Part shown: one piece after another, positions 11,367 through 17,470 of the stretch
Layout of the letters: each line of letters starts with the position of its first letter
How positions within the stretch are numbered: the stretch's first letter is position 1
Assembly (NCBI GenBank): GCA_965208125.1
Contig: OZ242320.1
Span: 288,001-352,000, forward strand
Origin: Candidatus Latescibacterota bacterium
GTDB taxonomy: Bacteria > Latescibacterota > UBA2968
Length of the DNA: 64,000 bases
Direction: 5' to 3'
The notes under the pieces: generated by a model
What the model was told of the DNA's origin: nothing
The model's input: the letters and a program-made list of their open reading frames with translations, nothing else
Databases searched by the model: none
Translations under genes and position numbers: made by a program

Positions 11367-12350
11367 TCAGATGTACCGAATATTCTTCCCCAGAGTCGCC
11401 ACCATCTCGCCGCTTGATACCATCGGCAGCAAATTCTCCGACCAGAAAATCGACTCCTCTGGCGCGCGCAATGTCTCGAGCACATTGCCAAACGGATCGG
11501 TAATATCTGCAACGGGATCACCCTTTTGCAAATGATCGTAATGCTGCGCGTGAAACTCTATAAACCCACCCCGATTGGCCAACACCGTCAAAAACCCATC
11601 CACCACCACTTGCTTTTTGGGTATAAACGGCTCCCCCGGTATAACCCCGTAATACTTCAACACATTCTCGACACCCGTAATACCCTTCTGAATGCTCTCA
11701 CTATCCCAGCCCATGCATCCACCCAATTCGGGATCAATCGTCGGAATCCCCTCATCGGGAGCAGAACGCGCGAGTTGACCTTCGGGACCGCGCTGATCGA
11801 GAATATAGCCAATACCAAACACCTGAGCCATCTCCATACACACGCGGTGAATGCGCTTGCGCCGATCCACCCGCACGCGCACCTCGTCAATCATCGGCCG
11901 GCGCCCCCCCTGGTGCAAATCAATACAATAATCGGACTGCATCACCGCATTGTGAAATAACCGATAGGCAATGCGCTCGCTCGACGTGCCATCTTTGCGC
12001 CCGGGAAAACACCGATTCATCTTTTTTTCATCAACCGGACTAAATGCCTGATGCGCGTGAAACGCGTGGAAATTGACAATCAACACCGCGATAACCCGCC
12101 CATTCATCACCGTCGGATCCAGCCGCTTCAACACCTGTCGAATCACGCTGATGCCATTTAACTCATCCCCATCGCTAATCGCCTGCAAATAAATCGTCGG
12201 TCCTTCTTCAGCACCATTGATCAGGGATACCGGAACGCGCGCAGGCGACCCATCCTGCATCTCAGCCACCTTCAGATAGCCATCCGTGCGCTGCCCAGAC
12301 TCAGCCCGAAGATGTTCAACGCGAAGCAATTCACCCATAATAATTATCAC
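11367..12350 (-). CDS. Succinylglutamate desuccinylase/aspartoacylase family protein
   Basis: SDGDELNG, MNRCFPG, IDLHQG, C-terminal biotinyl-like segment. Confidence 0.85.
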   Translation of the reverse strand: MIIIMGELLRVEHLRAESGQRTDGYLKVAEMQDGSPARVPVSLINGAEEGPTIYLQAISDGDELNGISVIRQVLKRLDPTVMNGRVIAVLIVNFHAFHAHQAFSPVDEKKMNRCFPGRKDGTSSERIAYRLFHNAVMQSDYCIDLHQGGRRPMIDEVRVRVDRRKRIHRVCMEMAQVFGIGYILDQRGPEGQLARSAPDEGIPTIDPELGGCMGWDSESIQKGITGVENVLKYYGVIPGEPFIPKKQVVVDGFLTVLANRGGFIEFHAQHYDHLQKGDPVADITDPFGNVLETLRAPEESIFWSENLLPMVSSGEMVATLGKNIRYI

Positions 12351-12422
12351 TCCTCAAAAAAGCCAAATACCTCTCAATTCTCAGTGTTAAAAAAACGAGT
12401 GAATCCATGTGCTGTCAACTGA

Positions 12423-12454
12423 AAAGAGCCGATCCATTTCCGGACCGGCTCTTT
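12423..12454 (-). terminator. Intrinsic terminator after the DUF1080 gene
   Basis: AAAGAGCCG...CGGCTCTTT inverted repeat. Confidence 0.7.
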
Positions 12455-12482
12455 CACTGATCACCTCAATAATAGACCCTCT

Positions 12483-13229
12483 CTACCCCTCATCATAATC
12501 GGTCAATGGACGGATCCAGATATTGCGATAACGCACGGGATCGCCGTGATCTTGCAGCATCAACGGCCCGGTAGGCCCGTGCGGCGTATCGTAATTCGAC
12601 ACATTCCTGTGCCCGGTCGGTCCCATAGCCTCTTTGCGATTGTGCAGCACAACACCGTTCAAAAACACCGTCAAATAAGCGGGCTTCACCAGCGTATCGC
12701 CATCGTATTCCGGTGTTTCAAAAACAATATCATAAGCCTGCCACTCACCCGGTGGACGCGTCGCATTCACCAGCGGCGAATACTGACTGTAAATCGCACC
12801 CGTCGTACCATCAGAATACGTCGGATTGTCATATCCATCCAGCACCTGCACCTCGTATTTCCCGATCAAAAACACACCGCTATTTCCCCGCCCCTGACTG
12901 CTGCCGCGCACTTCTGACGGACAGGCAAACTCTATGTGCAACTGCGCGCTCCCAAACTCATCTTTTGTCTGGATATTCCCCGTACGGGGATTCACCTCTA
13001 CATACCCATTCTCCACCGTCCATGTCGGATCTCCACCATCGCGACTCTGCCAACTGGACAAATCTGTACCATCAAATAGCACCACGGCATCCGATGGCGC
13101 ATCACCTGCACTGGCACCTGGCGTCACCACGCGCGGTGCTGGACGATTCTTATCGTGAACGCGCCACGGTTGATTGGGCAACATCGGCGTATCGTCATAC
13201 CCCACAGGCGTGTGTTTTTCTGCTGCCAT
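12483..13229 (-). CDS. DUF1080 (3-keto-disaccharide hydrolase) family protein
   Basis: AVVLFDG, GNSGVF, YEVQVLD, PGEWQAYDI, LQDHGDPVRYRNIWIR. Confidence 0.9.
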   Translation of the reverse strand: MAAEKHTPVGYDDTPMLPNQPWRVHDKNRPAPRVVTPGASAGDAPSDAVVLFDGTDLSSWQSRDGGDPTWTVENGYVEVNPRTGNIQTKDEFGSAQLHIEFACPSEVRGSSQGRGNSGVFLIGKYEVQVLDGYDNPTYSDGTTGAIYSQYSPLVNATRPPGEWQAYDIVFETPEYDGDTLVKPAYLTVFLNGVVLHNRKEAMGPTGHRNVSNYDTPHGPTGPLMLQDHGDPVRYRNIWIRPLTDYDEG

Positions 13230-13321
13230 TTTGTTTCCTTTCTAAAATGAAGTGGATATTTTATTGTGAAACCATGATTATAAAAATAAAAGACCGTGTC
13301 AAGCCCGCAATACACAATACC

Positions 13322-14113
13322 TCAGTAGTAAATCCCACTGATATCCCACCCAAAGACAGACACATCTACCCATCCGTTGTTGCCCTCCCCTCCTGCATTG
13401 ATCTCAACACCCTCGCACGCCAGCAACGCCCGCTGATTATCCACATGCGGCGTCAAATACCCTTTTGAATCCAGAATGCGATGCAAGGGAAACGCCTGTC
13501 CTGTCACGCGCTTCATATAGGTGGGCAACACGCGGTAATACGAATGCGACACCCCCAGAACATCCACAATCTGCTTATACGTCATCACCCTCCCAAAGGG
13601 AATCTGTTTTACAACCCACAAAAATCGATCAGAGGTGCGATCGGGCACGGGATCATAACACCTGGACAAAACCCTGACCGGATCGCCTTCACAAACGACA
13701 CCACCCGTCAGCACCACAGCCAAAAATCCTCGCCGATTCTCCAACAACTGGATCGGTTTGACGCCCAACGTCCCGATATACTTGCACACCTCACAATGAT
13801 ACGTCAGCCGAACTGTGGCAGAATCCCCAATTTGCAACACCGAACCCGACAGCAAATCGTCCAGCGACAACCCGGCGACAACGACATTCTCTCGCAAATC
13901 ACCCGGCTGCAATTTGAACTCGTGCAGAGTCTCCAGAGCAACCAAGAGCACCTGCCGCGGACCAACGCCGTCTGCATTTGCATCGCCTTCAATGCCAAAA
14001 CGAGCGCGCAGCAAAAATTTACCATCGCGCGGTCTGGACAAAGGCAGTCCCTTCTCTAACTTTGTGAATAGGGAAATGACGCGCCCCTGTGTATCCATCT
14101 GCACACTTTCCAT
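13322..14113 (-). CDS. MOSC domain fused to MGMT/alkyltransferase-like (ATL) DNA-binding domain
   Basis: MOSC: GIEGD, RQVLL, PGDLRENV, CEVC, RRGFLAVVLTGG. ATL: VKQIPFGRVMTYKQI, PLHRI, QRALLACEGV. Start is 14113 (TAATG coupling) or 14128. Confidence 0.8.
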   Translation of the reverse strand: MESVQMDTQGRVISLFTKLEKGLPLSRPRDGKFLLRARFGIEGDANADGVGPRQVLLVALETLHEFKLQPGDLRENVVVAGLSLDDLLSGSVLQIGDSATVRLTYHCEVCKYIGTLGVKPIQLLENRRGFLAVVLTGGVVCEGDPVRVLSRCYDPVPDRTSDRFLWVVKQIPFGRVMTYKQIVDVLGVSHSYYRVLPTYMKRVTGQAFPLHRILDSKGYLTPHVDNQRALLACEGVEINAGGEGNNGWVDVSVFGWDISGIYY

Positions 14114-14778
14114 TACTCCGACATCCATCCACCTGCGACCCGGGCCAATTCTTCCATCACGGGTTCATCGGTATTTCGCCGCTTCAAAATTTTAAATCCG
14201 TGATCCGCGGTATCCACCACGTGAAGCGTCGCATTTTTCAGATTATTCACCTCCGGCTGCAACAGTTCTAAACTCGCCATCCTATCCCGCTGACCCGATA
14301 AAAACAACATCGGCACGCGTACATCCTTCAAATGCTCGGCGCGCTCTGTATTAGGCTTGCTCGAATACAGCGGAAAAGCGAAAAACACAATACCCTTCAA
14401 CCCGTCAACAGGTTCTTCGGCACAAGCCATCGAAACCATCCGCCCGCTCATCGAATGTCCACCGGCAAAAACTGGCAATCCGCGCGCCTGCTTCATCCCC
14501 ATCTCTATAGCCGCACGCACCGTTGCCAACCGCACCTTCTCCCCATCCATGCCACCACCGCCCCTCTCGGAATAGGGATAATTAAAGCGCAAAGTCGCAA
14601 TCCCCACATCGTTCAACGCATCGCTCAGTTCCCGCATAAAAAGATGCCGCATATTCGTACCCGACCCGTGACCCAATACCAATAGTGCCTTTGCCCCGCG
14701 CGGTCGTGCGTACAAAGCCGACACCTCCCCCTTTTCCTCAGTCGCAATAAATTTCAACTCTCTGGGTTCAACAGCCAT
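14113..14778 (-). CDS. Alpha/beta hydrolase (KANL3/Tex30-like)
   Basis: LGHGSG, RFNYPY, GGHSMSGR, GQRD, ADHGF. Confidence 0.85.
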   Translation of the reverse strand: MAVEPRELKFIATEEKGEVSALYARPRGAKALLVLGHGSGTNMRHLFMRELSDALNDVGIATLRFNYPYSERGGGGMDGEKVRLATVRAAIEMGMKQARGLPVFAGGHSMSGRMVSMACAEEPVDGLKGIVFFAFPLYSSKPNTERAEHLKDVRVPMLFLSGQRDRMASLELLQPEVNNLKNATLHVVDTADHGFKILKRRNTDEPVMEELARVAGGWMSE

Positions 14779-15255
14779 TTATGTCTCCTCTTCTAACCAG
14801 GTAATATGAGATTCCCGCGGCGTAGCGCAAAGTGGGCCGCCACGATCATCCGTCAACTTTAGCTTTACAACAATGGGATCACCCGACTCAACTGCCCGAT
14901 TAACCTGCGCCCAATCGAGATGCCCCAGACGAATTTTGAGCCGCCGAAACATCTCAAAATCACCCGAATCTCGCACCACCCCCCAAGAAAGATAAAAAAA
15001 GCGATCCGCGGGCCTGCCCTGTGCATAAGGACCCAAAAAATTGGGTGAACCATCGGGTTTCTCACCAACCCTGAACTCGGGATAAAATACGACCTCACGG
15101 CGATCTGCTGGAACCTGCTCAACAACCTCTTTATCACGCTGTATGCCGAGATAAACGGGTTCCTTAACCTCAGGATCATGACCGTACGGATCTTCAAAAC
15201 GCGTACCGGGCAATTCGGTACAAATTACTTTCAGTTTCAGTTGTTCGTCTTTCAT
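14779..15255 (-). CDS. DUF5990-like protein
   Basis: LGIQR, FLGPYAQG.PADRFFYLSWG, MFRRLKI, LTDDRGGPLCA; GAGGTGG SD before ATG 15255. Confidence 0.7.
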   Translation of the reverse strand: MKDEQLKLKVICTELPGTRFEDPYGHDPEVKEPVYLGIQRDKEVVEQVPADRREVVFYPEFRVGEKPDGSPNFLGPYAQGRPADRFFYLSWGVVRDSGDFEMFRRLKIRLGHLDWAQVNRAVESGDPIVVKLKLTDDRGGPLCATPRESHITWLEEET

Positions 15256-15357
15256 GCACCACCTCTTTTCAGAACTTGCACCAAATGATATAACGAAGTA
15301 TAGTATAGAAATACCATTTACGCCGCCCAATTCTTTGAACATCGCGAAAGGAGACGC

Positions 15358-16716
15358 ATGCAACCCAACATCATCTTGATCAACTGCGACGACCTCGGCT
15401 ATGGTGACCTCGGCAGTTACGGCTCTAAAATCAACAAAACGCCAGCACTCGACAAAATGGCTGCGGAAGGCATCAAATTCACCGACTTCTACATGGCATC
15501 TCCCGTGTGTTCGCCCTCGCGAGGGGCCATGCTCACGGGCTGTTATCCTCCCCGCATTGGCTTTGGCTCTTTTGATGGACGTTGGGTCCTCTTTCCCGGT
15601 CAGGGTGTGGGATTAAATTCCAGCGAAATCACCATCGCCAAACTCCTCAAAGACAAAGGCTACGCCACCAAAATAGTCGGCAAATGGCACTGCGGAGACC
15701 AGCCAGAATTTCTACCCACCCGTCACGGATTCGACAGCTACTACGGCATCCCCTATAGCAACGACATGGGGATACAAAAAGAAGACGACAAAAATCCACC
15801 CCTGCCCTTATTGCGCGACGAAGAAGTCATCCAGGCACAACCCGACCAGCGCGGCATCACCGAACGCTACGTCGAAGAATGCGTCCGTTTCATGCGCGAC
15901 AACAAAGACCAGTCCTTCTTCCTCTACCTCGCCCACATGCACGTCCACCTGCCCCACTATCCCCCCGAAGCCTTTGTCCGTGAATCGCAAAACGGCGTGT
16001 ATGGCGCAGCAGTCGCCTGCATTGACTGGGCAGCAGCCGTCATCTTTGACGAACTCAAAACCCTGGGACTCGACGACGACACCCTCGTCATCTTCACCAG
16101 CGACAACGGCTCTCGCGCCCGCGACGAAGGCGGCAGCAACAGCCCTTTGCGCGCCACCAAAGGCACCACCTGGGAAGGCGGTCAGCGCGTACCATGCCTC
16201 ATGCGATGGCCCGGCAAAATTCCCGCAGGCGAAGTATGCAGCGAACTGACATTATCCATGGACTTTTACCCCACGCTTGCAGCCCTCGGCGGTGCAGAAG
16301 TACCCACCGACCGCATCATCGACGGCAAAGACATCCGCCCGTTCATGTTCGCAGAAAAAGGCGCGACATCGCAACACGAATCCTTCTTTTACTACAAACG
16401 CAACAGCATCGAAGCCGTGCGGAGCGGCAAATGGAAACTCCACATCCGCAAAGACGACCAAGAAATCCGGGAACTCTACGACCTCGAAGCCGACATCGGA
16501 GAAACCAATGACATCAGTGATCAACACCCCGATATCGTGCGGGATCTCAGAGCGCAAATTGACACCTGTCGCAAAGACCTCGGAGACGATGCCGCAGGCA
16601 TCACAGGCGAAAACATCCGCCCCGCTGGCCGCGTTGAAAATCCCGATACCCTCACGCATCTCGACCGCGATCACCCCTATATGATCGCCATTTACGATCT
16701 AAAAGAACGGGGGTAA
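15358..16716 (+). CDS. Sulfatase (arylsulfatase A-like)
   Basis: [38 protein letters not shown]. Confidence 0.92.
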
Positions 16717-16717
16717 C

Positions 16718-17470
16718 ATGGCCCTTACACCCGAACAAGTCGCCGAGTTCAAAACATTGGGATATGTCCTCGTACCCAATCTAATCGATCCATCGATGTT
16801 GGACAATTGGCGTGCACAAATTCGCGCCCAATACGGTGATCTCTCTGACCCCGTTCAACAAAACGCTGCAGGACCGCGCCAACAACACCGCGAAGACATC
16901 ACCATATTGCGAAGCTTTCGCTTTTCGCCAGAAGAAACACAACTCGTCAACCAGCCCAAAGTCAAAGCCATAGTCAATCACATGGGGGGCGATGGACAAT
17001 TTTGCGGTGAAGACGGCAACCTGCGTCTGCTCTTGCCCGAACCCAAAAGCGAATGGTGCTTGCCAGAGCGCGGGCACATCGACGGTTATCTCGGCAAGCG
17101 GCGGGGGGCCTCTTTTCTCCTCGGATTGGCGACCTATATCTACGATGTGGAACCGCGCGGCGGAGGCACCGTCTTCTGGCCGCGTAGCCATATCAAATCA
17201 TGGGAATTTCTTCGCAAACATCCCGATCACCTCAGTTGCAGCTTTAAGGACCACCCCGAATATCTCGACATGGTCAAAGATATTCAACCTGTTGAACTGC
17301 ATGCAAAAGCGGGCGACGTCATCTTCTGGCACTGCAACATCCTGCACGAAACCTCTCAAAACACCAGCAACAACATCCGCTATGGCCTTTTCGCCCGCCT
17401 GCCCCACAAAGACCAGGAGACATTCCGAGACGAAATACCCGATGTCCTCTGGAAACGCTGGCGGATTTAA
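16718..17470 (+). CDS. PhyH-family Fe(II)/2OG dioxygenase
   Basis: GHIDG, GGGTVFWPRSH, AGDVIFWH..LH. Confidence 0.85.
   Translation: MALTPEQVAEFKTLGYVLVPNLIDPSMLDNWRAQIRAQYGDLSDPVQQNAAGPRQQHREDITILRSFRFSPEETQLVNQPKVKAIVNHMGGDGQFCGEDGNLRLLLPEPKSEWCLPERGHIDGYLGKRRGASFLLGLATYIYDVEPRGGGTVFWPRSHIKSWEFLRKHPDHLSCSFKDHPEYLDMVKDIQPVELHAKAGDVIFWHCNILHETSQNTSNNIRYGLFARLPHKDQETFRDEIPDVLWKRWRI

Follow-up and report, generated by a model that had tools for sequence, protein, structure and literature searches.

An uncharacterised MOSC protein subfamily with an alkyltransferase-like fold as its C-terminal module

Few bacterial molybdoenzymes are as common, or as poorly understood, as the MOSC proteins. The domain is said to have been defined by Anantharaman and Aravind in 2002, and the role first proposed for the family was that of a sulfur carrier or thiol-based catalyst. 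Here we describe a gene in a 64,000-nucleotide stretch of contig OZ242320.1 (positions 288,001 to 352,000; hereafter the window) of a Candidatus Latescibacterota bacterium, the product of which joins a small MOSC barrel to the fold of the alkyltransferase-like (ATL) proteins, which have no alkyl-acceptor cysteine. According to the accessible text of PMC5818509, YiiM crystals show a beta-barrel with N-terminal and C-terminal helix bundles around a putative cavity for the molybdenum cofactor (Moco), where a phosphate lies close to the invariant C120 with Q115, S118, S200 and W201 as its ligands; YuaD is without the C-terminal bundle and has a long beta3–beta4 loop that is thought to close the cofactor site, and mARC and YcbX put another domain in the place of the bundle. 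Because no crystal contains the cofactor, how Moco is held and how substrates are chosen in YiiM and YuaD are unsolved problems. The available part of a review of mARC and other MOSC proteins (PMC10637980) states that MOSC enzymes reduce N-hydroxylated bases and nucleosides. For the O6-alkylguanine-DNA alkyltransferases (AGTs) and ATL proteins, the available part of an alkyltransferase review (PMC10779285) places the start of the recognition helix and the Arg finger at the core of the DNA interface, with the lesion pocket opening on the same face, and describes only endonuclease and histone-like fusions of AGTs (that is, AGT-EndoV of Ferroplasma and the histone-like AGT-2).

We conclude that the fusion represents a MOSC subfamily, so far uncharacterised, whose C-terminal module has an ATL fold. 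The reading that we favour, and to which we would give an even chance, is that it is a YiiM-type Moco-dependent N-reductase in which the cap that closes the cavity is a complete ATL fold. An earlier sequence-only reading of the gene knew of no characterised protein with the MOSC plus ATL architecture, and our literature searches found none: they returned no study of a MOSC–alkyltransferase fusion, including in the available part of PMC10779285, and the available part of PMC10637980, which treats the YiiM, YuaD, YcbX, mARC and MOS architectures, has no mention of methylguanine, alkyltransferase or MGMT.

A MOSC barrel and an ATL fold in one chain

The N-terminal half matches the Pfam family MOSC (PF03473) over residues 65–147 with 35.4 bits (curated cut-off 22.7). 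An AlphaFold2 model of the fusion made from 15 family sequences (mean predicted local distance difference test score (pLDDT) 88.1, predicted template modelling score (pTM) 0.83) predicts a compact two-domain protein. When this model was compared with known structures in VIA, the results of which agree with those of a Foldseek search, residues 4–152 aligned with YuaD of Bacillus subtilis (1oru) over 146 residues (Z 18.6; root-mean-square deviation (rmsd) 2.4), and the MOSC half also matched human mARC1 (7p41, Z 15.5) and gsYiiM (5yhh, Z 15.3), with YiiM structures spanning Z 13.6–15.3. Conservation was counted in an alignment (A2) of the fusion protein (P0001) with its best 148 representatives, to which all family counts of 149 refer. 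PF03473 is matched at E ≤ 1e-3 in 133 members; C110 is Cys in 144, the remaining five having gaps and none another residue, and C107 is kept in 139. Other conserved positions of the alignment are R128 (140), G129 (139), R163 (138), R53 (135) and N76 (132); R53 and N76, together with C110, count among the catalytic features of the MOSC domain.

The C-terminal half matches DNA_binding_1 (PF01035), the C-terminal domain of AGTs, over residues 163–236 with 40.5 bits (curated cut-off 27). In VIA, residues 157–258 of the model align with DNA-bound Atl1 of Schizosaccharomyces pombe (3gx4) over 100 of 108 residues (Z 14.7, rmsd 2.1, 27% identity), with vpAtl of V. parahaemolyticus (2kif) over 98 residues (Z 12.8) and with human AGT (hAGT, 1t38) at Z 9.8, and the family profile reaches Atl1 at E 3.6e-14. 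The modelled C-terminal domain has a true ATL fold and carries no counterpart of the AGT N-terminal domain. The sequence-only reading had assigned a MOSC domain containing CEVC (residues 107–110) and an MGMT-family domain, and both assignments are borne out, the first by a Pfam score above the cut-off and a YuaD-like fold, the second by the same kind of score for PF01035 and by the match to Atl1, over residues 157–258, that an MGMT fold should give. The strings that it quoted (KQIPFGRVMTYKQI, PLHRI, QRALLACEGV and CEVC) are all present in the translation, and its PLHR site is real, albeit at 13478–13489; the range 13475–13489 that it gave takes in an additional Ile codon.

The acceptor cysteine of AGTs is Leu210 here, and the protein is therefore not a suicide alkyltransferase; an active alkyltransferase was rejected on this ground together with the scores of the NCBIfam Ogt models (12–18 bits against cut-offs of 46–250), NCBIfam as a whole giving matches to Ogt and MoaC/MOSC models that all lie far below threshold. 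The Cys-less site recognized in the sequence-only reading is a family trait: PxHR is aligned in 104 of the 149, and x is V in 46, I in 16, A in 15, L in 13, T in 4, G in 2, F in 2 and M, S, K, R, W or E in one each, that is, Cys in none of the 104. The best whole-protein sequence match in the PDB is 4zyh (E 2.2e-6), an engineered S. solfataricus OGT; as its active site reads PLHR, the natural motif copies a laboratory Cys-to-Leu variant.

By alignment with the ATL encoded in the host genome and by the family profile, Y179, R194, L210 and H223 correspond to Y25, R39, W56 and R69 of Atl1, which we take to be the flipping Tyr, the Arg finger and the pocket Trp and Arg, respectively; R194 also lies at the position of R128, the Arg finger of hAGT. 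R194 and P197 are each kept in 142 of 149 members, G187 in 139 and P172 in 135, and the Y179 position holds Tyr in 92 and Phe in 21. In the pocket half the counts are 129 for R212, 119 each for P209 and W256, 115 for E234 and 113 for H211, so that R194 and P197 are better conserved than H211 or P209. The recognition helix has R-V-L-P (R-[AV]-[LI]-P in the family) in place of the RxVG that is canonical in ATL proteins and AGTs, the invariant P197 replacing a small residue, and in the fusion model this helix is broken at residue 195. RxVG is present in Atl1, vpAtl, SsOGT and the host genome’s own ATL; the host genome’s own Ogt has xxVG, with Gln in the place of the Arg, and Ada-C has Ala at the position equivalent to P197. 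Sixteen regions of the host phylum contain 12 stand-alone ATLs with PWHRV, all 12 of which have Gly three residues after the Arg-finger position (11 RxVG, one RVIG); these and the host’s own ATL agree with the statement of the sequence-only reading that ATLs typically carry PWHR.

Recurrence, selection and host background

A word-indexed search returned 33 relatives at 36–91% identity, 24 of them with both Pfam domains. Their database names include ‘MGMT family protein’, ‘MOSC domain-containing protein’ and ‘alkylated DNA nucleotide flippase Atl1’; the architecture is thus already visible, and automatically annotated, in databases. When one genome of each species was scanned, 47 loci came up, 15 in metagenome-assembled genomes (MAGs) of Candidatus Latescibacterota and the others in Herpetosiphon, a Ktedonobacteraceae MAG, cyanobacteria, Poribacteria, Alphaproteobacteria and other groups. 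Both Pfam domains were found in 12 of 34 open reading frames (ORFs; 34 loci, three phyla), namely three from Latescibacterota, two from Herpetosiphon, one from Ktedonobacteraceae and six from cyanobacteria, two of these six scoring less than the DNA_binding_1 cut-off; in the remaining 22, MOSC was the sole domain. Searching 1.84 billion cluster representatives with HMMER gave 830 proteins at E ≤ 1e-3, 319 at E ≤ 1e-10 and 71 at E ≤ 1e-30, and DNA_binding_1 is present in 110 of the 149 representatives in A2. The fusion family comprises approximately 100 clusters of metagenomic proteins (50% identity) in at least three phyla, and in the ESM Atlas the two-domain clusters, of 95 and 117 members, are commonest in Cyanobacteriota. 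None of the 149 representatives contains a third Pfam family, and no larger fused form was seen among 4861 candidates of 462–2000 amino acids (aa), which is weak evidence.

Within the host phylum the gene occurs in 20 of 168 genomes, the window’s own included. In the host genus an intact single frame without internal stops, at 72–92% identity, is present in 17 of 20 other species (18 of 21 with the host itself). None of the ten genomes from other genera of the host family has it; in one further family 2 of 76 genomes give a match (one frameshifted, one over the MOSC part only), and the remaining genomes of the phylum give none. Pairwise ratios of nonsynonymous to synonymous substitution rates (dN/dS) against 11 orthologues are 0.10–0.24 for the MOSC part and 0.11–0.49 for the ATL part, and both halves are under purifying selection. 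On the basis of this selection and of its recurrence, we regard the fusion as a selected, patchily distributed accessory gene.

The same data bear on the possibility that the fusion is an artefact, that is, an assembly join or a lost stop between two genes. The sequence-only reading had seen its proposal as endangered if the fusion were absent elsewhere, and it is instead found in the 17 congeneric species, in Chloroflexota and Cyanobacteria and in the metagenomic clusters counted above. Two broken relatives show that split-looking forms exist: in L030:8019-8803 (Herpetosiphon llansteffanensis) the frame changes between the MOSC and ATL halves, and in G095:C268:6536-7270 the match falls into three pieces with an internal TGA and TAG. 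These copies are either pseudogenes or sequencing errors, and nothing else speaks for an artefact. Given the recurrence of the fusion (a single frame in 18 of 21 host-genus species, both domains in ORFs from three phyla, and DNA_binding_1 in most representatives), we reject this explanation as almost certainly wrong; the dN/dS values below 0.5 in both halves and the compact two-domain model also stand against it.

The host genome further encodes a 176-aa Ogt (PCHRV), a 106-aa stand-alone ATL (PWHRV) and, as the only other MOSC match in the genome, a second MOSC protein of 186 aa. In the genome search DNA_binding_1 scored 43 bits for the fusion, 71 for the ATL and 121 for the Ogt. Ogt, ATL and fusion occur together in 11 of the 15 host-genus genomes searched (the host included; at the cut-off of that search). 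The host’s Ogt (L053:1477-2007 (-), equal to G000:C1 about 4434027-4434557) has the recognition helix G-A-S-Q-A-V-G, with Gln where AGTs normally carry the Arg finger. The Pfam family YiiM_3-alpha (PF03475), which covers the three-helix module of YiiM, has no match anywhere in the host genome; it was found in none of the 21 genomes of the fusion-bearing genus (the host included) versus four of five genomes in two sister genera without the fusion, a comparison in which the host-family genomes are kin and not independent.

Genes for Moco biosynthesis (MoaC, MoeA and MoaE) are present in the host genome, and MoaC is present in five of five other fusion-bearing genomes tested. These genes are relevant to an alternative in which the protein does not use Moco at all: the MOSC domain would act through its CExC cysteines as a sulfur carrier or thiol catalyst, and the ATL-like domain would supply a modified purine or nucleic acid. 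The conservation of both C107 and C110 would suit such a role. However, mARC also has a CxxC, and its second cysteine is the Mo ligand. According to the available text of the respective papers, none of the crystal structures of small MOSC proteins contains Moco (PMC10637980), and YuaD, the closest structural match of the N-terminal half, has no known function (PMC5818509), both of which leave room for this alternative; on the other side, the same part of PMC10637980 has every MOSC protein of known activity as a Moco enzyme, and all six fusion-bearing genomes tested have Moco genes, although such genes would be expected in these genomes anyway. On balance we consider a protein without Moco distinctly unlikely.

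Apparent placement of the ATL-like helices and proposed mechanism

Where the ATL fold sits relative to the MOSC barrel is suggested by comparison with YiiM. In VIA, gsYiiM superposes on the fusion model over 159 residues, reaching residue 198, and Escherichia coli YiiM (ecYiiM) reaches residue 186; the MOSC core accounts for 145 residues. The A2 profile finds E. coli YiiM (5yhi, E 3.9e-6; 1o65, E 4.5e-6) in one continuous alignment that runs from the barrel through the C-terminal bundle, in which ‘MPFDDD-QYHRLLSAAGLSKSWTRTM’ of YiiM is aligned to the family consensus ‘iPagkvvtykqllkaiGvsssyaRal’. In the MOSC part this alignment pairs N76, C107, E108 and C110 of the fusion with N87, R117, S118 and C120 of ecYiiM, and in the helices P172, Y179, G187, S191, Y192 and R194 with P182, Y188, G196, S200, W201 and R203 (YiiM is numbered as chain index minus 6, which reproduces N87, Q115, R117, S118, C120, S200 and W201 as given in the accessible text of PMC5818509). 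In the model, the ATL-like helices, the recognition helix included, appear to pack against the MOSC cavity where YiiM has its C-terminal bundle.

Relatives that seem to contain only a MOSC domain, approximately 190–240 aa long, are informative in this respect, as their last part is a stub of three helices with homology to the ATL domain’s first half. The stubs, found in Poribacteria, Alphaproteobacteria and other groups, keep G187, R194 and P197 and are without the PxHR half (one reads ‘ERIRWFLSK...GLPPSYARAMPRLLEK’ and then stops). The model of one such relative (198 aa, pLDDT 90.0, pTM 0.85) can be superposed on ecYiiM along 165 residues, as far as the end of its third helix at residue 183 (Z 13.6, rmsd 4.3). 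In a midpoint-rooted FastTree phylogeny of 136 members, from which 13 fragments with fewer than 150 core residues were left out, the 25 truncated forms are scattered over 15 separate positions, interspersed with 99 full-length forms, some of the truncated entries possibly being fragments at contig ends. From this distribution it seems that the pocket half was lost repeatedly while the three helices were kept.

From these observations we propose the following scheme, in which the fusion would be a small Moco-dependent reductase and would belong to the YiiM/YuaD branch of MOSC proteins. Its N-terminal barrel would carry Moco on the invariant Cys110, and the Cys-less ATL fold would pack on the barrel at the place of the three-helix bundle of YiiM. 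The start of the recognition helix (S191, Y192 and R194) may line the cofactor cavity and bind the phosphate of Moco, in the way that S200 and W201 hold phosphate in YiiM, and the purine pocket (P-L-H-R, E234 and the W256 tail) may adjoin the metal. If the recognition face does line the Moco cavity, canonical duplex binding would be blocked and the mouth of the pocket would face the metal site. The pocket could then hold a free N-hydroxylated purine, a nucleoside or a similar N-oxygenated substrate, which would be reduced with electrons from some donor. The invariant P197, the helix break at residue 195, the high conservation of R194 and P197, the lack of a conserved repair neighbour and the presence of Moco genes are consistent with a changed function of this helix, and so is the distribution of YiiM_3-alpha within the host family, which is confined there to genera that do not have the fusion.

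The positional evidence can also be read in another way, in which the ATL-like domain is a cofactor module and nothing more: it would bind Moco like a flipped nucleotide, with the phosphate at the N terminus of the helix and, in the former alkylguanine pocket, either the guanine-like pterin or the nucleotide of a molybdopterin guanine or cytosine dinucleotide (MGD or MCD), and would have no role in substrate choice. The pocket follows directly on the helix that is aligned with the phosphate-binding residues of YiiM, and pterin and guanine would, on general chemistry, share a 2-amino-4-oxo-pyrimidine edge. We nevertheless consider this reading unlikely, as the truncated relatives and YiiM manage without the pocket. 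HAP (6-hydroxylaminopurine) resistance in E. coli is, to our knowledge, independent of MobA, which also counts against it. The closure of the Moco site by other elements in YuaD, mARC and YcbX (PMC5818509) is in its favour; the docking model of YiiM in the same paper, which has the pterin touching MOSC residues and not the helix bundle, is against it.

A third possibility is that the enzyme is directed at nucleic acids, the ATL-like domain flipping a modified base (N-hydroxylated, N-oxidised or of another kind) out of the DNA or RNA and Moco reducing it in place; in essence this is what the sequence-only reading had proposed. The closest structure to the C-terminal domain is DNA-bound Atl1, the Arg finger is retained, the position of Tyr25 (Atl1) and Tyr114 is Tyr or Phe in 113 of 149 members, and H211, R212 and E234 are kept in most. 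The domain is also as positively charged as true ATLs, and an aliphatic residue 210 would give the pocket a roomier floor than Trp does. The activity of MOSC enzymes on N-hydroxylated bases and nucleosides, as described in the available part of PMC10637980, would fit, and fusion of AGT or ATL domains to repair catalysts such as EndoV has precedent in what is available of PMC10779285. Were this reading true, it would amount to reductive direct reversal of N-hydroxylated bases (for example, N6-hydroxyadenine and N4-hydroxycytosine), that is, a new class of repair. Against it, the recognition helix apparently points towards the MOSC cavity like the last helix of YiiM, which would block minor-groove binding; at the site for which canonical proteins require a small residue it has an invariant Pro, with the helix of the model broken close by. 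A base flipped from nucleic acid and then passed to the reductase is difficult to reconcile with such packing, and a coupling of flipper and reductase is further disfavoured by the repeated loss of the pocket half from relatives that keep the helices and by the lack of a conserved repair neighbour at 11 loci. The host genome, moreover, already has an Ogt and a canonical ATL. We therefore consider this third possibility rather unlikely.

Several findings weigh against our preferred reading of a YiiM-type reductase with an ATL-fold cap. The domain orientation is taken solely from the first and last aligned residues and the aligned lengths. A profile of the C-terminal part only (A4, 21 sequences) searched against the PDB found Atl1 (E 4.3e-10) and vpAtl and no YiiM at E ≤ 10; hhalign comparisons of C-terminal sub-alignments of the family with seven YiiM-like C-termini of the phylum gave probabilities of at most 1.2%, and at full length the hhalign alignment ends at the end of the MOSC barrel; and YiiM_3-alpha of Pfam has no match in the fusion (E ≤ 0.1) or in 16 truncated C-termini (E ≤ 10). 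Independent sequence proof that the YiiM 3-alpha domain equals the ATL helix-turn-helix was thus sought by C-terminal profile, hhalign and Pfam and failed by all three, and because C-terminal-only profiles do not reach YiiM, we treat the link to YiiM as suggestive only. Purifying selection acts on the whole ATL fold (Arg finger, Tyr179, H211, R212, E234 and the W256 tail) at the dN/dS of 0.11–0.49 given above, and the conservation of the fold exceeds the needs of a simple cap. The mean net charge of the ATL-like domain is +3.8 (n = 97) versus +2.9 in true ATLs (n = 13); since it is no lower than in true ATLs, polyanion binding is not obviously lost, and as a test of lost DNA binding the net charge is uninformative. 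YiiM and the fusion coexist in two of five other fusion-bearing genomes, both Herpetosiphon, and for this reason the two are not simple replacements of each other; a strict either/or relationship, which is true within the host family, fails in Herpetosiphon and was rejected. No electron-donor partner is conserved near the fusion across 11 loci, one of which has an adjoining flavin mononucleotide (FMN) reductase gene. Finally, the accessible text of PMC5818509 and of PMC10637980 has Moco never seen in crystals of YiiM or YuaD, and the YiiM cofactor site is a docking model.

The C-terminal module of the fusion is possibly a long form of the YiiM 3-alpha domain. The ‘3-alpha’ domain of YiiM may be what is left of an ancestral ATL domain, and HAP-resistance enzymes may have arisen from a fusion of MOSC with a purine-flipping domain; our literature searches found no paper that links the YiiM 3-alpha domain to a helix-turn-helix. 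The family offers a possible evolutionary origin for this domain. A recognisable purine-binding fold at the place where YiiM has its cavity-forming helices would provide a testable model of how YiiM-type proteins bind substrate and cofactor, and the family is a clean test of the reuse of the ATL fold outside DNA-damage sensing.

Gene surroundings and comparison with known systems

The positions of the fusion, its domains and its neighbours are given in Table 1. The ATG of the fusion overlaps the stop of the upstream gene as TAATG, and because of this overlap the fusion and the Abhydrolase_11 gene are probably co-transcribed; the DUF5990 gene is, from its spacing, possibly the first gene of the same transcription unit. 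The pairing of Abhydrolase_11 and fusion is confined to the closest clade and is not conserved beyond close relatives: the hydrolase gene recurs at L013, an HpcH aldolase takes that place at L016, and other phyla have unrelated genes there. On the other side of the fusion, the 3-keto-disaccharide hydrolase gene probably has its own promoter.

Table 1 Features of the fusion gene and its surroundings, in window positions
Feature	Position	Strand	Description
MOSC–ATL-like fusion, coding sequence	13322..14113	(-)	263 aa + stop; ATG at 14113
Longest minus-strand ORF of the fusion	13322..14128	(-)	268 aa; first ATG 14128; alternative start with 5 extra residues
MOSC beta-barrel, residues 8–152	13658..14092	(-)	small YuaD/YiiM type without MOSC_N; Pfam and structure
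C107-E-V-C110	13784..13795	(-)	CExC motif; C110 is the invariant MOSC cysteine
ATL-like domain, residues 157–258	13340..13645	(-)	AGT C-terminal fold including ATL-type F/Y-x-W tail (W256)
Helix-turn-helix, residues 179–202	13508..13579	(-)	Y179, G187, S191-Y192, R194, P197
R194 codon	13532-13534		Arg-finger position
P209-L210-H211-R212	13478..13489	(-)	Cys-less PCHR alkyl-acceptor motif
Abhydrolase_11-family alpha/beta hydrolase	14113..14778	(-)	upstream of fusion; 221 aa; Pfam
DUF5990 gene	14779..15255	(-)	PF19452, 118 bits; abuts hydrolase gene, directly upstream of it
Promoter-like site	13274-13302	(-)	TTGACA-17-AATCAT (10 of 12); within 92-bp spacer 3' of fusion
3-keto-disaccharide hydrolase gene	12483-13229		downstream of fusion and promoter-like site
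ORF, putative sulfatase	15358-16716		identity judged by eye
ORF, putative PhyH-like dioxygenase	16718-17470		identity judged by eye

The genes around the fusion (window 11367-17470) point to catabolism of carbohydrates or sulfated glycans and of small molecules, and not to DNA metabolism; those with Pfam matches encode an AstE/AspA-type deacylase in addition to the 3-keto-disaccharide hydrolase, the Abhydrolase_11 protein and the DUF5990 protein. A Pfam survey of 52 neighbouring ORFs at 11 fusion loci found no partner gene common across phyla and no conserved uvr or other DNA-repair neighbour. HtpG lies downstream of the fusion at two cyanobacterial loci, and Imm10 and a metallo-beta-lactamase-fold gene adjoin it at two Herpetosiphon loci. 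The FMN reductase gene mentioned above, which is NADPH-dependent and lies directly downstream of the fusion in one cyanobacterial MAG (L026:2987-3550 (+)), is a possible candidate for the electron donor there.

The known systems can be compared with the fusion as follows. YuaD of B. subtilis (1oru), the best structural match of the N-terminal half, is a MOSC-only protein without a C-terminal domain. mARC1, mARC2 and YcbX, which the available part of PMC10637980 describes as N-reductases of N-hydroxylated bases and nucleosides, have a similar MOSC core (Z 15.5 for 7p41), but their Moco site is closed by a MOSC_N beta domain, to which YcbX adds a 2Fe-2S domain, and the fusion has neither. AGTs (hAGT, 1t38; SsOGT; Ada-C, 1sfe) have the C-terminal fold in common with the fusion (Z 9.0–9.8), which differs in having no acceptor Cys. 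ATLs (Atl1, 3gva and 3gx4; vpAtl, 2kif; and the host’s own ATL) resemble it in this lack as well as in fold, in the SYxR start of the helix with its Arg-finger position, in the H-R that follows the substituted residue, in a conserved Glu and in the C-terminal aromatic-x-Trp; the fusion differs from them in its MOSC partner, in the aliphatic residue (V, I, A or L) that is usual at the position of Trp56 (Trp in 1 of 104), in His223 at the position of Atl1 R69 and in RxLP instead of RxVG. YiiM (E. coli and Geobacillus; 1o65, 5yhi and 5yhh), a Moco-dependent HAP-resistance protein, likewise consists of a small MOSC barrel without MOSC_N followed directly by a C-terminal helical module in an apparently similar position; its module, however, has three helices (YiiM_3-alpha) where the fusion has a full ATL fold of approximately 100 residues with a purine pocket, and R117 and S118 of YiiM are C107 and E108 in the fusion.

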